A DNA stretch of 64,000 bases, from assembly GCA_020852295.1 (NCBI GenBank), contig JADZBC010000009.1, positions 216,058 through 280,057 on the forward strand, written 5' to 3'. A model generated the notes under the pieces. The model searched no databases. It was given only the letters and a program-made list of their open reading frames with translations, and was not told the DNA's origin. Source of the DNA: a bacterium. GTDB lineage: Bacteria > Patescibacteriota > Saccharimonadia > CAILAD01 > JADZBC01. Shown here piece by piece: positions 34,717-38,575 of this stretch; within the stretch, counting starts at the first letter, position 1; each line of letters opens with the position of its first letter. Position numbers and translations under genes: made by a program.

Positions 34717-35124
34717 ATGGCCGACCTATCTAGCCATGGGGTTGTCGCAGTAGTAGTTAAGGACGGTAAATACTTACTACTCAATGACGTTAGAGATCTA
34801 ATGTACGGAAAGTGGGCTCCACCTCATGGCAGATGTGAGTCAACTGACACCTCAGAAGAAGATGCGGTTAAGCGAGAAACTACCGAAGAAACCGGACTAC
34901 GCGTAACCCCAATTCGAAAATTACTTACTCAACCCGCTGATACAAAAGTAAAAACAGTCTCTTTTTGGCATTGTGAAGTGGAGGGTGAGAGCGAAGTGGT
35001 GCTTGATGCCACTGAGTCATCTGAATACAAATGGTGCAGTGTGGACGAGGCTCTCGCATTGCCACTGTATCCTGGCACACAAATATTTTTTGAAAAGATA
35101 AAGAACGACGAAATTCAAATTTGA
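34717..35124 (+). CDS. NUDIX hydrolase (135 aa)
   Basis: Nudix box GRCESTDTSEEDAVKRETTEETGL. Confidence 0.65.
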   Translation: MADLSSHGVVAVVVKDGKYLLLNDVRDLMYGKWAPPHGRCESTDTSEEDAVKRETTEETGLRVTPIRKLLTQPADTKVKTVSFWHCEVEGESEVVLDATESSEYKWCSVDEALALPLYPGTQIFFEKIKNDEIQI

Positions 35125-35795
35125 AGATACATATAATCACACTTTTTCCAGAAATGTTTGAGGGGCCGTTTGCGCACTCTATGATTTGGAAGGCGCAGGA
35201 CAAAGGTCTGGTCGAGATCAAACTCGTCAATCTACGTGACTTTGGTATTGGTCCGCGCAAGACGGTCGATGATACGCCATATGGTGGCGGGGATGGTATG
35301 GTGCTGCGGGTTGAGCCAGTCTTTGCAGCGGTTGAGTCGATAAAGGAAACAGGGCCCGAAGCAAAAGTACTCCTCATGACGCCACGCGGCAAGCCATTTG
35401 TGCAGGCTGATGCACAAAAGCTCAGTACCGAGCAATCGCTTATTATTTTGTGTGGTCACTACGAAGGTTTCGATGAGCGCATCATGAGCCTCGTCGATCT
35501 AGAGATATCGATGGGAGACTTTGTACTGACTGGCGGTGAGATTCCGGCGATGGCGGTGGTCGATAGTGTGGTGCGATTGATACCGGGCGTACTCGGTGGT
35601 GAGATGAGTGCGCACGATGAGTCGTTTAGCCACGGCCTGCTGGAGTATCCACAATACACACGGCCAGATGAGTGGCGGGGGATGAAGGTACCCGATGAGC
35701 TCAAGTCGGGGAACCATGCGCAGATCGCCCAGTGGCGCAAAGACCAGGCGATTCGTAAAACAGGTGAAAATCGACCCGAGCTACTAGATTTTTAG
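35121..35795 (+). CDS. trmD: tRNA (guanine37-N1)-methyltransferase
   Basis: TrmD blocks IHIITLFPEMF, YGGGDGMVL and LTGGEIPAM. Confidence 0.9.
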   Translation: MKIHIITLFPEMFEGPFAHSMIWKAQDKGLVEIKLVNLRDFGIGPRKTVDDTPYGGGDGMVLRVEPVFAAVESIKETGPEAKVLLMTPRGKPFVQADAQKLSTEQSLIILCGHYEGFDERIMSLVDLEISMGDFVLTGGEIPAMAVVDSVVRLIPGVLGGEMSAHDESFSHGLLEYPQYTRPDEWRGMKVPDELKSGNHAQIAQWRKDQAIRKTGENRPELLDF

Positions 35796-35799
35796 GGTG

Positions 35800-35856
35800 G
35801 AGCAGGGGATCAACCTCCCCTAGCGCTCTCCCCTGCTTCCCTGCGATTTTTTTTAC
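35800..35856 (+). terminator. trmD terminator: GAGCAGGGGA...TCCCCTGCTTC hairpin followed by T8
   Basis: A 10-bp GC-rich stem with a 19-nt loop, followed by TTTTTTTT. Confidence 0.6.
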
Positions 35857-35899
35857 TTCTTGCCCTCCCCGCACCCTAGCTCTCCCCTGTTTGGATATA

Positions 35900-35928
35900 T
35901 TGACAAATCCCCTATTTTATGCTAATAT
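35900..35928 (+). promoter_or_regulatory. consensus sigma70 promoter TTGACA-17-TAATAT (cassette copy 1)
   Basis: Perfect -35 and a near-consensus -10 with a 17-nt spacer. Duplicated at 36580-36608. Confidence 0.6.
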
Positions 35929-36034
35929 TTCTTCTAATTCCTACCTGTATGGATAGGTGGAGGAGCCCTCGGGTAACTCAGCGGCGTAGCTCTGGCGCCA
36001 CCCCAGAGCACTTGAAATGGAAGGAGGTGCTCGG
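35929..36034 (+). promoter_or_regulatory. structured roughly 105-nt leader, copy 1 (mutually exclusive hairpins GGCGU..GCGCC and GCTCTGG..CCAGAGC)
   Basis: Conserved against copy 2 at about 75% identity, with compensatory substitutions. Ends in an AAGGAGG RBS. Confidence 0.5.
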
Positions 36035-36463
36035 ATGAGCACCACCGAACTGAAGAAGGTCAACCTGCTCGAGTTCTTCGAGAAGGTGATCAACGGTCCC
36101 TCCCGCGAGGAGCTGTTCGACAGCCTGCGGCTGTTCAACCTCCGCCAGACGCTGGTCGAGTTCACGCTCGAGCAGAAGCGGCTGCGCGGATCGATGGTCA
36201 AGCCGACGGTCATCAAGGCCCGCGTCATGGGCATCCGTCCCGAGGACGGGTCGTCCAACCGCTGGCTGGTGGACCTGCTGGTCAACCAGATCGTCAACAG
36301 CGACACCGAGCCGGAGGACCCGTACGTCTCGATCTACTTCGACACCCAGGTGCGAGCAGGGCACATCATCGTCCCGCCGCAGCGCGAGGTCGTCGTGCGA
36401 GACGGACAGATCGTGCTGGACGGCACGGTGATCGGGAACCTCCCGGCCGCCACGTTCAGCTGA
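36035..36463 (+). CDS. hypothetical protein A (142 aa), high-GC cassette cargo, paralog of the 36713..37075 protein
   Basis: AAGGAGG RBS 8 nt upstream. Shares GPSREELFD(S/A)L and GI(R/S)xEDGSxNxW(L/I) blocks with protein B. G/C-rich third positions. Confidence 0.55.
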   Translation: MSTTELKKVNLLEFFEKVINGPSREELFDSLRLFNLRQTLVEFTLEQKRLRGSMVKPTVIKARVMGIRPEDGSSNRWLVDLLVNQIVNSDTEPEDPYVSIYFDTQVRAGHIIVPPQREVVVRDGQIVLDGTVIGNLPAATFS

Positions 36464-36469
36464 TCTTCG

Positions 36470-36577
36470 GCAAGCCAGGCCACTGGGGCCCGTGAAGATT
36501 CTACGCTTCAACGATCCGATACGTTAATTCGGGTCACCACCCAAGTTCATAACTCGTTTGTGAGTTTAGGTGGAAAG
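36470..36577 (+). repeat. 3-prime flank repeat copy 1 (about 108 nt, 97% identical to 37079-37184)
   Basis: Direct repeat containing an AACTC-gtttgt-GAGTT hairpin. Immediately followed by the next promoter. Confidence 0.7.
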
Positions 36578-36579
36578 TA

Positions 36580-36608
36580 TTGACAATATGTATTAAATAT
36601 GCTAATAT
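36580..36608 (+). promoter_or_regulatory. consensus sigma70 promoter TTGACA-17-TAATAT (cassette copy 2)
   Basis: Same hexamers and spacing as copy 1. Confidence 0.6.
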
Positions 36609-36712
36609 TTCTTCGATTCTTACCTGCATGGGTAAGTGGAGACGCCTTCGGGCATCTTAACGGCGCAGCTCTGGCGCCATCCCAGAGCACAAAACAGAAA
36701 GGGGTGTCTCGT
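36609..36712 (+). promoter_or_regulatory. structured leader, copy 2
   Basis: Hairpins CTTACC-tgcatg-GGTAAG and GCC-TTCG-GGC. Alternative pair GGCGC..GCGCC and GCTCTGG..CCAGAGC. RBS AAAGGGG. Confidence 0.5.
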
Positions 36713-37075
36713 ATGAGCACCGCCACCATCCACCCCGAAGACAAGTTCTTCGGACCCTCCCGCGAGGAGTTGTTCGACGCACTCGAACACGACCGAACCC
36801 TTCGCATGACACTGGAGAAGGACTGGTCGCAGACCAGCGATCCGCGGCAGATCGTCTTCCGGGTCATCGGCATCAGCCGCGAAGATGGTTCGAACAACTC
36901 CTGGATCCTGGAGATCGCCCTCGTGTCTGCCGTGGAGGAGCGGTTCTACCAGGGGGTCGAGGCATCGCTCAACTTCGGTGATCGCGGAGGTAAGAAGTTC
37001 GCCTCCGTCCTCGGTCGCAAGATCCGGGTGCACTACTCCTCAGCGAAGGCTGAAGGCCGATTCCTGGAGTTCTGA
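36713..37075 (+). CDS. hypothetical protein B (120 aa), paralog of protein A
   Basis: The ATG follows the leader. Conserved blocks are shared with protein A. High GC3. Confidence 0.55.
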   Translation: MSTATIHPEDKFFGPSREELFDALEHDRTLRMTLEKDWSQTSDPRQIVFRVIGISREDGSNNSWILEIALVSAVEERFYQGVEASLNFGDRGGKKFASVLGRKIRVHYSSAKAEGRFLEF

Positions 37076-37078
37076 GTG

Positions 37079-37184
37079 CAAGCCAGGCCACTGGGGCCGT
37101 GAAGCTTCTACGCTTCAACGATCCGATACGTTAATTCGGGTCACCACCCAAGTTCATAACTCGCTTGTGAGTTTAGGTGGAAAA
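37079..37184 (+). repeat. 3-prime flank repeat copy 2
   Basis: Near-identical to 36470-36577 (one indel, three substitutions). Confidence 0.7.
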
Positions 37185-37194
37185 TACTAAAACG

Positions 37195-37237
37195 GTACAA
37201 GCCCCCGACAAGATTGCTCTCGTCGGGGGCTTTGTAC
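37195..37237 (-). terminator. strong hairpin GTACAAAGCCCCCGAC-12 nt-GTCGGGGGCTTGTAC with a U-rich tail on the minus strand
   Basis: A 15-16-bp stem abutting the stop of the minus-strand ligase gene. May act bidirectionally. Confidence 0.6.
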
Positions 37238-38508
37238 TACACCAACACCGTGCCGGTCAGGATGGCATCCTTCGCGCCGTGCACGGCCTTGTTCGGCCGA
37301 GCCGTGATGGCGATGTCCTCCACGCCGGTTCGGCTGAAGTAGGCGGTGAGGCGCAGCTGCCATTCACCCGGCGGATCGAGCTGACCGCGCTCGTCGAATC
37401 GCTGCCAGGCGAACCGGCGGTTGGTCACCTCGCGCTGGAGGATGTTGGCGCCCCGCTGCCGACTGGCCGCCAGCAGCGCCTCGCCGAACTCCGGCTCGTC
37501 GCCGAAGTAGATGCCGCGCATTCCCGAAGCCACTGACTGCTTGAGCACCAGACCGTGGTGGTTCGACAGCTGGGGCGTTGTCCAGTCGCGGCCGATGATG
37601 TGGGTCATCGGCAAGTGCGACCGCACGACACGCAGAGCCGATTCACTGATCTGACTGCGCACCAGCGCTTCGATGGCCGGGTCGCCCACCGCGTTGCTCA
37701 CCACCCCGAGCAGCGACTTGCTCGCCAAGAAGTGCTTGGGGGAGATGAGGCACTGCAGCGTGCCACTCTTCAAGCCGGCGCGGAGCCAGTCGATGAGCGG
37801 CTTGTTGTAGTTCATCGGCGGCATGTCGATGAGGGTCGGCGGCAGCACCTCGCCCGTGCGGGCGTGACGCATGACGCCGGAGTGCACATCGACCTGCAGC
37901 TCGTTGATCACAGCCATCTCGATGCCCAGGAGCTTGAGCTCGCGAGCGATGATCGCAAACTCCGGCTCGTAGAAGCGCTGCGTGTCACCGAACAGGAACG
38001 TCACCGCGTCAATGCGGCGGCGCCGGCACTCAGCGGCGATGTAAGCAGCGACACCCGGGAGCTGTGCGGCCTCGGGCCGGAGCACCTGGCAGATGCGTCG
38101 ACCGATGATGGAGTAGCCCCAGCTGCGGGGGTTCGTCGCATCGATCTCGGCCAACCAGATGTGGCCCTGCTCGTCGATGAGCAGGTCGCACTTGCGCAGG
38201 ATGGGGAGGTTGCGCGGCCGGTTGTTGGGCAGCTTGTAGGGCGTGCCCTGCTTGAGGGTGTTGCCGATGCGTCCGTACGGCAGCATCTTGCCACACAGAT
38301 CCGGCTGCTCGCTGATGGCGACGATCCGGCTGATACCACCCAGCACCTCGTCGATGGCGGGGGCCAGCTGGTTGAGCTGGTTGAGCTGGTCGCTACCCAG
38401 TTCGTATACGTCCGGTGAGAGCTGGAAAGCGTGCGACCGCTCCTGCTCGCCGTTCCAAATGCCCGTCTCACGGACAGTTTCTTGCAACTCCGCAAACATG
38501 GTGTCCAT
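37237..38508 (-). CDS. glutathionylspermidine-synthase-like (YgiC/YjfC family) ATP-grasp amidoligase, high-GC
   Basis: Motif order matches the GspS-like family. The N-terminal block LIDEQGHIWLAEIDATNP matches YgiC LDLAWDG..LLENNADTP. The C-terminal lysine block GLVLKQSVASGMRGIYF matches YgiC YVVKPIFSREGANVSI. Start taken at the second ATG, which has an AAAGGA RBS. The longest ORF starts at 38541. Confidence 0.6.
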   Translation of the reverse strand: MDTMFAELQETVRETGIWNGEQERSHAFQLSPDVYELGSDQLNQLNQLAPAIDEVLGGISRIVAISEQPDLCGKMLPYGRIGNTLKQGTPYKLPNNRPRNLPILRKCDLLIDEQGHIWLAEIDATNPRSWGYSIIGRRICQVLRPEAAQLPGVAAYIAAECRRRRIDAVTFLFGDTQRFYEPEFAIIARELKLLGIEMAVINELQVDVHSGVMRHARTGEVLPPTLIDMPPMNYNKPLIDWLRAGLKSGTLQCLISPKHFLASKSLLGVVSNAVGDPAIEALVRSQISESALRVVRSHLPMTHIIGRDWTTPQLSNHHGLVLKQSVASGMRGIYFGDEPEFGEALLAASRQRGANILQREVTNRRFAWQRFDERGQLDPPGEWQLRLTAYFSRTGVEDIAITARPNKAVHGAKDAILTGTVLV

Positions 38509-38575
38509 GGCGGGTCCTTTCGGGTTGGGGTGCGTGTGCACCGATGTGAAGGTGTAGTCCTGCTGAATCGCAGGC

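Follow-up and report, generated by a model that had tools for sequence, protein, structure and literature searches.

Comparative evidence for a pseudoknotted leader RNA family dedicated to one small-protein gene family of Patescibacteria

Introduction

Two small genes stand in tandem within a stretch of 64,000 nucleotides of DNA from a member of the Patescibacteriota (Saccharimonadia; assembly GCA_020852295.1, contig JADZBC010000009.1, positions 216,058 to 280,057 of the forward strand). That whole stretch is here called the window, with positions counted from its first letter. Each gene is preceded by a leader of about 100 nucleotides (nt), at 35929-36034 and at 36609-36712, that is, by sequence extending from the end of a promoter -10 box to the base which precedes the ATG, and the two leaders are 83% identical over 75 nt. 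A sequence-only reading of the window saw in both a pair of mutually exclusive hairpins, with compensatory substitutions between the copies, and described them as riboswitch- or attenuator-like. What kind of RNA, then, do these leaders specify, and what might that RNA do for the genes downstream?

Comparison of homologous loci shows the leaders to be members of a new and widespread leader RNA family, one which is dedicated to a single gene family and which, as judged from strand order and covariation, is pseudoknotted. That answer is developed below, from distribution to helices, to the pseudoknot, and to the start codon, after which possible effectors are weighed.

Distribution of the Leader

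Homologous loci were collected by protein motif alone, 40 from species genomes of the Genome Taxonomy Database (GTDB) and 40 from metagenomes. As retrieval used only the protein motif, the resulting sample is unbiased towards any RNA sequence. In each of the 80 loci the gene has the leader immediately before it, i.e., in 40 of 40 genomes of the candidate phyla radiation (CPR, or Patescibacteria) and in 40 of 40 metagenome contigs, with the taxa of the genome loci including Saccharibacteria, Paceibacterota, Nomurabacteria, Falkowbacteria, Vogelbacteria, and Minisyncoccia. At each genome locus the leader is about 90-110 nt long, at nearly all of these loci there is a strong promoter, and a comparable promoter at the same distance is recognised for 40 of 45 parsed leaders. 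The units are nearly all monocistronic, consisting of promoter, leader, open reading frame (ORF), and terminator.

Three flavours, or subtypes, of the leader can be distinguished: A, which is that of the window and of Saccharibacteria; B, which is Paceibacteria-like; and C, which is intermediate. With a covariance model derived from flavour A (R1), every A leader scores 88-111 bits, and all ten C leaders are recovered as well, with E from 1e-9 to 2e-4. A second model, built from flavour B (R2), finds all 24 B leaders at 82-126 bits and recovers the C leaders weakly, at coordinates which are exactly those given by R1. The three subtypes hence appear to be homologous leaders. Among the 40 metagenome loci, R1 matches 27 and R2 matches 10, with three further matches weak or truncated, and all of these lie directly upstream of the gene. 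Neither model gives a credible match elsewhere in the approximately 370 kb of flanking sequence, nor does R1 find copies in the 64-kb window besides the two.

Some observations concern the surroundings of subtype-B cassettes in particular. Two typical ones (loci L032 and L039; individual loci are cited by number) are on contigs from metagenome-assembled genomes labelled Gammaproteobacteria, contigs which are probably mis-binned Patescibacteria. A repeat of about 30 nt, ttcgaacatcNtcccaNgtNcggagc, flanks subtype-B cassettes in L021, L024, L025, L030, L034, and L041, and in L024 and L041 neighbouring units open with a promoter that is similar and likewise strong, their transcripts beginning with TAGT(A)GTTCTTT/TAGTAGTTTTTT. 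The repeat and these transcript starts may be signs of a region that houses small cassettes with high expression.

Helices and Covariation

From its 5' end, the leader consists of a terminal hairpin (P1), a second hairpin (P2), two helices (S1 and S2), a purine-rich linker with the Shine-Dalgarno (SD) sequence, and a last hairpin which encloses the AUG, termed here the start hairpin. All window features of this kind are on the forward strand, with P1 and P2 resting on covariation. P1 of leader 1, at 35940-35957, consists of CCTACCT and GGATAGG about a GTAT loop of the G-N-A-Y type, with one C·A mismatch, while P1 of leader 2, at 36619-36636, consists of CTTACCT and GGGTAAG about GCAT. The C-G/T-A compensatory change which had been pointed out for this upstream stem is real, although copy 1, in the register then claimed (CCTACC/GATAGG), includes that C·A mismatch. 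P1 starts 3-5 nt past the predicted transcription start in all subtypes. P2 is at 35960-35979 in leader 1 (GAG..GCC-CTCG-GGT..CTC, with an internal loop) and at 36639-36658 in leader 2 (GAGA.GCC-TTCG-GGC.TCTT), and the contrast of GCC-CTCG-GGT with GCC-TTCG-GGC had been correctly read.

Pairing in a model of five helices was counted on alignments made from sequence only, using MAFFT, with helices slid along the alignment and 500 shuffles as controls. For 11 distinct flavour-A sequences, 92.4% of cells are paired versus 39-49% for the slid helices, and 20 of 30 pairs have changed on both sides. With flavour A enlarged to 19 distinct sequences these values become 95.1% versus 39-50%, and 23 of 30, and with 24 distinct flavour-B sequences they are 96.5% versus 38-50%, and 16 of 26. 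In none of these three cases does any of the 500 shuffles reach what is observed. P1 is paired in 96% of cells, with five covarying pairs, and all six pairs of P2 covary, its loop being variable among homologues in both sequence and length. An independent prediction by RNAalifold, from the enlarged flavour-A alignment, contains P1, P2, S2, and the start hairpin. Covariation between the two copies had been taken to indicate a functional RNA, a reading which is supported, for covariation extends far beyond the window, homologues are present at 80 of 80 loci, and scores are above those of all shuffled and slid controls.

Might these palindromes nevertheless be operators, in DNA, of a dimeric transcription factor? 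P1 and the start hairpin are, after all, near-perfect DNA palindromes beside a promoter. G-U pairs, however, are abundant on the sense strand (in flavour A, two positions have UG in 10 of 19 cells, and at the base of P2 GU makes up 8 of 19), whereas non-standard cells are rare, including those A·C and C·A combinations which are expected from G-U pairing on the opposite strand. Selection thus acts on RNA rather than on a DNA palindrome. Half-site sequences, furthermore, change freely while pairing is kept, and interleaved pseudoknot strands have no meaning for a DNA operator. Taken together, these points leave a DNA operator scarcely credible.

The loops of P1 and of the start hairpin share a G-(U/G)-A-(U/C) type, which is GUAU or GGAU in subtypes A and C and GUAC in B, and the two loops change jointly between flavours. 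Coding does not explain the G-N-A-Y conservation in B because there the loop is not part of the AUG. Only these loops are common to all subtypes. An AAC before S1 and a UG after P1 are kept in A and C, where B has UC and UU, and between subtypes neither junction nucleotides, nor P2 loops, nor the length of the linker to the start hairpin (approximately 10-30 nt) is conserved. Kissing between the P1 and start-hairpin loops was considered as well. Self-complementarity, which holds for GUAC and GUAU, fails for GGAU/GGAU (L001) and GGAC/GGAC (L016), and the idea was rejected.

In most leaders the pseudoknot is followed by a further motif, GUAC or GUUC. It is seen as GUUCUUU, just after the pseudoknot, in B and C (e.g., L008:2960-2975 and L042:2950-2965), and as GUAC in A. 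GUUCUUU repeats the P1 5' strand in subtype B, pairs weakly with the SD, and does not covary with S2. Its candidacy as an anti-SD sequence was dropped, such pairing being both weak and inconsistent.

A Predicted Pseudoknot Rather Than Two Exclusive Hairpins

The segments on which the switch interpretation was built are in place, GGCGTAGCTCTGGCGCCACCCCAGAGCAC at 35983-36011 and GGCGCAGCTCTGGCGCCATCCCAGAGCAC at 36662-36690, as are their helices. In leader 1, S1 pairs GGCG (35983-35986) with CGCC (35996-35999), giving 4 base pairs (bp), and S2 pairs GCTCTGG (35989-35995) with CCAGAGC (36003-36009), giving 7 bp, the two together spanning 35983-36009. In leader 2, over 36662-36688, the equivalent strands are 36662-36665 with 36675-36678 (S1) and 36668-36674 with 36682-36688 (S2). 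What does not follow is their incompatibility. The two hairpins had been said to share a central GG, but the overlap is of one G only, and this only if S1 is given a fifth pair, i.e., between the Y of GGCGY and the last G of GCTCTGG. Of 19 distinct type-A relatives, just 4 have a canonical pair there, and the conserved 4-bp and 7-bp helices as such do not overlap.

Strands of 46 leaders were parsed by a search that considered pseudoknots only, with seven leaders (L005, L020, L024, L028, L031, L035, and L045) resolved by eye. Throughout these 46 leaders the strand order is S1-5', S2-5', S1-3', S2-3'. This layout is that of a classical H-type pseudoknot, as predicted from the order of strands that are kept paired. 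In flavour A the three loops (L1, L2, and L3) are 2, 0, and 3 nt in length, which by the usual groove-crossing rules look long enough for stems of 4 and 7 bp, while in flavours B and C they are 3-5, 0-2, and 4-12 nt, with the third loop A-rich.

Both helices are kept, and covary, in every lineage. In flavour A, 94.7% of S1 cells are paired, two positions display changes from G-C to A-U, and there are several G-U pairs; among A and C leaders S1 takes the forms GGCG:CGCC, AGCG:CGCU, GACG:CGUC, GAGG:CCUC, GGGG:CCCC, and GCGG:CCGC. In B it has three covarying pairs and takes the forms CAGAG:CUCUG, CAGGG:CCCUG, and CGGAG:CUCCG. S2 is 100% paired in flavour A, with six covarying pairs (e.g., GUCUCUC:GGGAGAU in L007), and in B likewise has six (e.g., UCUUUAU:AUAAAGA, GUUCUAA:UUAGAAC, and UCCCUAA:UUAGGGA). 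What had been termed a classic switch geometry is, on this comparison, better described as an H-type pseudoknot.

Nested folding of the window leaders gives S2 a pair probability of 1.0 in one and 0.79 in the other, and a stand-alone S1 a probability of approximately zero. A thermodynamic equilibrium between the two hairpins therefore is not predicted either. No conserved alternative pairing was found among the leaders. There is one further possible competition, in that GAGCAC occurs twice in each window copy, once as part of the S2 3' strand and once in coding sequence, where either could compete for GUGCUC. This competition is real in the window copies and weaker in L001 and L004, but it is absent from L005, L006, L019, L028, and others, and the minimum free energy (MFE) structure that displayed it came from sequence cut at the AUG. 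As a conserved feature it was rejected.

Nor is there much to suggest attenuation. The leader lacks a terminator hairpin followed by a U-run, and the sole upstream ORF, which begins at 35949, is not conserved even in copy 2. That ORF (35949-36038, forward strand) has its AUG in the P1 loop, is 29 codons long, and ends at a UGA which overlaps the main start, as AUGA. Its equivalent in leader 2 ends after 10 codons, and subtype B, with its GUAC loops, has no AUG at that point. Attenuation by a leader peptide initiated in the P1 loop was set aside for these two reasons, i.e., lack of conservation and lack of a terminator. A switch or attenuator consisting of GGCGY/GCGCC versus GCTCTGG/CCAGAGC, though it can point to the one-G overlap and to the repeated GAGCAC of the window copies, is largely refuted by the comparative data, both helices covarying and co-occurring everywhere, and we consider it highly improbable.

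The Start Codon

In the last helix, nucleotides just upstream of the AUG pair with the G of that AUG and with codons 2 and 3. Leader 1 has GGTGCTC and GAGCACC about a GGAT loop, at 36026-36043, with the SD (AAGGAGG) at 36021-36027, such that the hairpin overlaps the 3' end of the SD, and with the ATG at 36035-36037. Leader 2 has GGTG(T)CTC and GAGCACC about GTAT, at 36703-36721, with an SD-like AGGGG and the ATG at 36713-36715, the feature as a whole extending over 36699-36721. The helix takes the form GGUGCUC-GGAU-GAGCACC in leader 1, GUC-GUAU-GAC in many A and C leaders, and CAUC-GUAC-GAUG in B, with compensatory changes which include C-G to G-C, to A-U, and to U-A. Comparison thus shows a start codon predicted to be enclosed in a covarying hairpin.

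The window hairpins are at -11.4 (leader 1, with a pair probability of 1.0) and -7.6 kcal/mol (leader 2). More generally, the region from -16 to +15 of 45 family genes was compared with that of 218 ORF starts taken from the same DNA as controls. The family has a median MFE of -4.2 kcal/mol, versus -1.5 for the controls (Mann-Whitney p 3e-11), and the probability of the AUG being unpaired is 0.31 versus 0.70 (p 3e-8). No recognisable SD was found between pseudoknot and AUG in flavour B. With the start codon buried in this manner, control by the leader of translation of the downstream small protein is what is most likely.

Control need not imply a specific effector. The 5' domain could be a stabiliser of the mRNA against 5'-end-dependent decay, with the AUG hairpin either tuning translation or serving as an RNA thermometer, i.e., a constitutive element or one responding to a physical signal. 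In every subtype P1 begins about 3-5 nt downstream of where transcription is predicted to start, which is consistent with such a role, as are the very strong promoters and monocistronic units, and the range of start hairpins, from 4 bp and approximately -2.6 kcal/mol in subtype B to 7 bp in the window, is thermometer-like. A stabiliser, however, has no need of a covarying pseudoknot, of a second hairpin, or of conserved G-N-A-Y loops, and the strength of the hairpin differs widely between lineages from similar habitats. We view an effector-free element as unlikely, though still a credible rival.

Known RNAs and the Case for an Aptamer

Scanning the window with Rfam 15 (4227 models) at gathering threshold returned two tRNAs only, and the leaders gave no match over 35700-37300 with E allowed up to 10. 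Scans of 45 homologous loci, 12 with E up to 1 and the remainder at gathering threshold, returned tRNA, rRNA, and transfer-messenger RNA (tmRNA) only, and a literature search found no description of the leader motif. The family is absent from Rfam 15 and previously uncatalogued, although the kind of element, a pseudoknotted cis-regulatory RNA of the 5' untranslated region (UTR), is already known.

To what degree, then, is 'riboswitch-like' a fitting description? A covarying fold located in a 5' UTR stands, but the conserved, mutually exclusive pairing of an expression platform does not, nor is there an Rfam match. Still, P1, P2, and the pseudoknot could together be the aptamer, for a metabolite or an ion, of a new riboswitch class, with ligand altering the opening of the start hairpin. 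In keeping with this, the fold is multi-helix, pseudoknotted, and strongly covarying, the third pseudoknot loop is A-rich in B and C, the start codon is occluded, and known riboswitch classes are absent. Yet the leader accompanies only one family of small, soluble, uncharacterised proteins, and was never found upstream of other genes in the flanks searched. Junction and loop nucleotides, moreover, differ between A/C and B, the linker to the start hairpin varies over approximately 10-30 nt, and pairing between the S2 3' strand and the start-hairpin 5' strand is seen only in the window copies and those leaders closest to them. A new riboswitch is unlikely, though to be taken seriously.

The Partner Proteins

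The ORFs of the two window cassettes have an invariant GPSREELFD...LRL motif that recurs in a family of small proteins, about 90-170 amino acids (aa) in length. A profile search of 1.84 billion representatives yielded 649 clusters at 50% identity with E up to 1e-3, and 137 with E up to 1e-10. Where named, these are 'hypothetical protein', and the named source organisms are all Patescibacteria. Family proteins have no sequence matches in Pfam, NCBIfam, PADLOC, PHROGs, or the Protein Data Bank (PDB), and no relatives in IMG/VR. A phage or defence origin was rejected, there being no IMG/VR relatives and no PADLOC or PHROGs matches. An AlphaFold2 model from a 70-sequence alignment is confident (predicted local distance difference test, pLDDT, 91), and Foldseek returned nothing significant. 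No conserved gene neighbours were found, genomic context being variable.

The coding GC of family genes is 10-20 points above that of the locus in A and C (0.55 versus 0.35 in L033; also L005, L010, L015, and L044), but not in B. In the window the family ORFs are at approximately 0.61-0.66, versus about 0.50 for the locus. Horizontal transfer or selection on the mRNA are possible causes. At L004:5001-5430 the orthologue from GCA_020049695.1 stops after 120 codons, with sequence downstream of the stop that resembles the rest of the 142-aa ORF (a match to ...DGQIVLDG...GNLP..TFS of L001). This may be either a premature stop or an assembly error.

How the Leader Might Act

The proposal that we favour, tentatively and as something plausible rather than quite probable, is of a dedicated, pseudoknotted 5'-UTR leader which controls translation by occluding the start codon and which responds to a protein acting in trans, most simply the gene's own product. 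The transcript would begin a few bases before P1. Translation initiation would be set by base pairing that masks the start codon and, for the window, also part of the SD. An RNA-binding protein, most simply the encoded one as an autogenous repressor, would then recognise the two similar G-(U/G)-A-(U/C) loops, that is, those of P1 and of the start hairpin, while P2 and the pseudoknot would supply a folded scaffold and a 5' stabiliser.

A protein effector is favoured because of exclusive association with one gene, the duplicated loop motif, poorly conserved junctions, and absence of an alternative fold, though these arguments are indirect, and the weaker of those made here. As with autogenous operators, the leader is found only with its gene (80/80) and the start codon lies within conserved structure.

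Several considerations weigh against such autogenous repression. Binding of the leader by an effector protein is putative. The protein is not basic, with a median pI of 7.9, and with pI values of 5.5 and 5.9 for the window copies, and it resembles an Sm-like fold only weakly. That S1 and S2 form simultaneously is deduced from covariation and loop lengths, nested folding excluding pseudoknots. Pseudoknots with A-rich third loops, as seen in B and C, are typical of small riboswitch aptamers. Finally, a stable AUG hairpin would be off even without a repressor, so that the real signal might instead be an activator, temperature, or a ligand.

More ambitious versions can be imagined. The 5' domain could be the aptamer of a riboswitch class restricted to Patescibacteria, or the pseudoknotted leader and a processing element in the 3' UTR, which in L007 and L047 would be a type III hammerhead, could together form a bipartite regulatory RNA, with either one controlling a protein family of new fold. 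This is speculation to which we attach only a low likelihood.

The Window Cassettes and Their 3' Elements

The window between 35.9 and 37.2 kb consists of two tandem cassettes of identical order, i.e., promoter, leader, ORF, and 3' element, flanked by trmD (35121-35795) and by a convergent ORF of high GC. Both promoters, found by promoter scan on the forward strand, have TTGACA, a 17-nt spacer, and TGCTAATAT. The first (35900-35928) has an extended -10 with TG present and 10 of 12 matches, and the second is at 36580-36608. Judged by these elements, both are near-consensus sigma-70 promoters and predicted to be very strong. ORF 1 (36035-36463, forward strand) encodes 142 aa and was assigned to the GPSREELFD small-protein family by profile search, and it is its AlphaFold2 model that has the pLDDT of 91. 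ORF 2 (36713-37075, forward strand) encodes 120 aa and is a divergent paralogue of ORF 1, at 41% identity over 63 aa.

After each window ORF comes an element of about 110 nt with four hairpins, at 36470-36579 and at 37080-37186 (both forward strand), the two copies being 96% identical, far above the ORFs. One of the hairpins, Hb, has the form GAUCCGA-UACGUUAAU-UCGGGUC, with TACGTTAAT as its loop in cassette 1. The loop core CGU(U/C)AAU is conserved in both window copies and in L001, L004, L006, and L028 (C for U in L001 and L004), with stems that display compensatory changes. The element has no Rfam match. In cassette 1 it is not a terminator, as no U-run follows it, the next promoter instead coming directly after; in L006 a U-run does come after Hb. 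An intrinsic terminator, GCCCCCGAC...GTCGGGGGC TTTGT, is present after cassette 2 only, where it closes the two-cassette unit (37201-37235, forward strand; terminator scan). A candidate antisense promoter in the cassette 1 element (36527..36498, reverse strand, TTAACG-18-TAGAAT) was rejected, its -10 being degraded in the second copy and absent from L001.

The cassettes are better kept in their flanks than in their coding sequence, with the leaders 83% and the 3' elements 96% identical versus 41% over 63 aa for the proteins. Within the coding sequence, conservation is confined to the first 9 nt and to the GPSREELFD codons (93%). This suggests either gene conversion of the flanks or fast coding divergence.

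Elsewhere in the family, the 3' UTR of the gene contains a type III hammerhead, preceded by a long GC hairpin, at L047:6345-6413 and in the region L007:3349-3386 (both forward strand). Its core is intact (CUGAUGAG...CGAAAC, with a GUC cleavage triplet), though the L047 copy is sub-threshold, at 36.1 bits versus the RF00008 gathering threshold of 48.5 (E 3.9e-6 in a 600-nt search), and hammerheads are present in 2 of 88 loci only, these two. The four-hairpin element of the window, which is equivalent in position, could be a new self-cleaving or protein-binding RNA.

The convergent ORF (37237-38541, reverse strand) encodes 434 aa at approximately 65% GC and has a weak, sub-threshold match only, to YheC/D ATP-grasp (E 0.0045). 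It bears no relation to the 432-aa neighbour that the family gene has in L047.

Significance

Patescibacteria represent a large share of bacterial diversity and are mostly uncultured, and to our knowledge almost no gene-regulatory RNAs have been described from them. With more than 80 examples of the RNA motif to hand, with covariation that is clear and the pseudoknot defined, the present family supplies a ready seed alignment for Rfam. It is invariantly linked to a protein family that is itself widespread, with those 649 clusters having no Pfam family and no recognisable fold, and it thereby offers a handle on a gene which is expressed from near-consensus promoters in reduced genomes. The hypotheses that it raises, of protein-RNA binding or of a ligand, are testable. 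It serves also as a correction of a tempting misreading, for two overlapping hairpins do not alone make a switch.

Comparison with Known Systems

Among riboswitches which employ an H-type pseudoknot and act on translation are preQ1-II, SAM-II/SAM-V, and fluoride. What the leader has in common with these is that a compact pseudoknot of H type lies in the 5' UTR, that the third loop is rich in A (subtypes B and C), and that control would be at the ribosome-binding region, with no terminator. It differs in matching no Rfam model even with E up to 10, in having two extra hairpins before the knot, in junctions that are not conserved across subtypes, and in regulating a single gene family. Its SD and AUG, furthermore, are found outside of the pseudoknot, in a separate hairpin 10-30 nt downstream.

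RNA thermometers and cspA-type 5' UTRs offer a second comparison, there being in common a strong promoter, a long structured leader, a small beta-rich protein, and a monocistronic unit, as well as, in many members, masking of the AUG or SD by a hairpin of modest stability. ROSE and fourU elements, however, are simple hairpins without a pseudoknot, whereas the leader is pseudoknotted and has no Rfam match, and the window hairpins, at -7.6 and -11.4 kcal/mol, are much stronger than is typical.

Autogenous operators provide the third. The thrS operator of E. coli has two anticodon-like hairpins which are bound by a dimer, the leaders of rpsO (bound by S15) and of phage T4 gene 32 contain pseudoknots, and the operator hairpin of the MS2 coat protein contains the AUG of the replicase. 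No similarity of sequence or of model links the leader to any of these, and its product is neither basic nor a known RNA-binding protein, with binding putative. What is alike instead is organisation: a leader belonging to one gene, a conserved hairpin with the start codon in or beside it, a pair of similar loops as in thrS, and a leader pseudoknot as in rpsO and gene 32.

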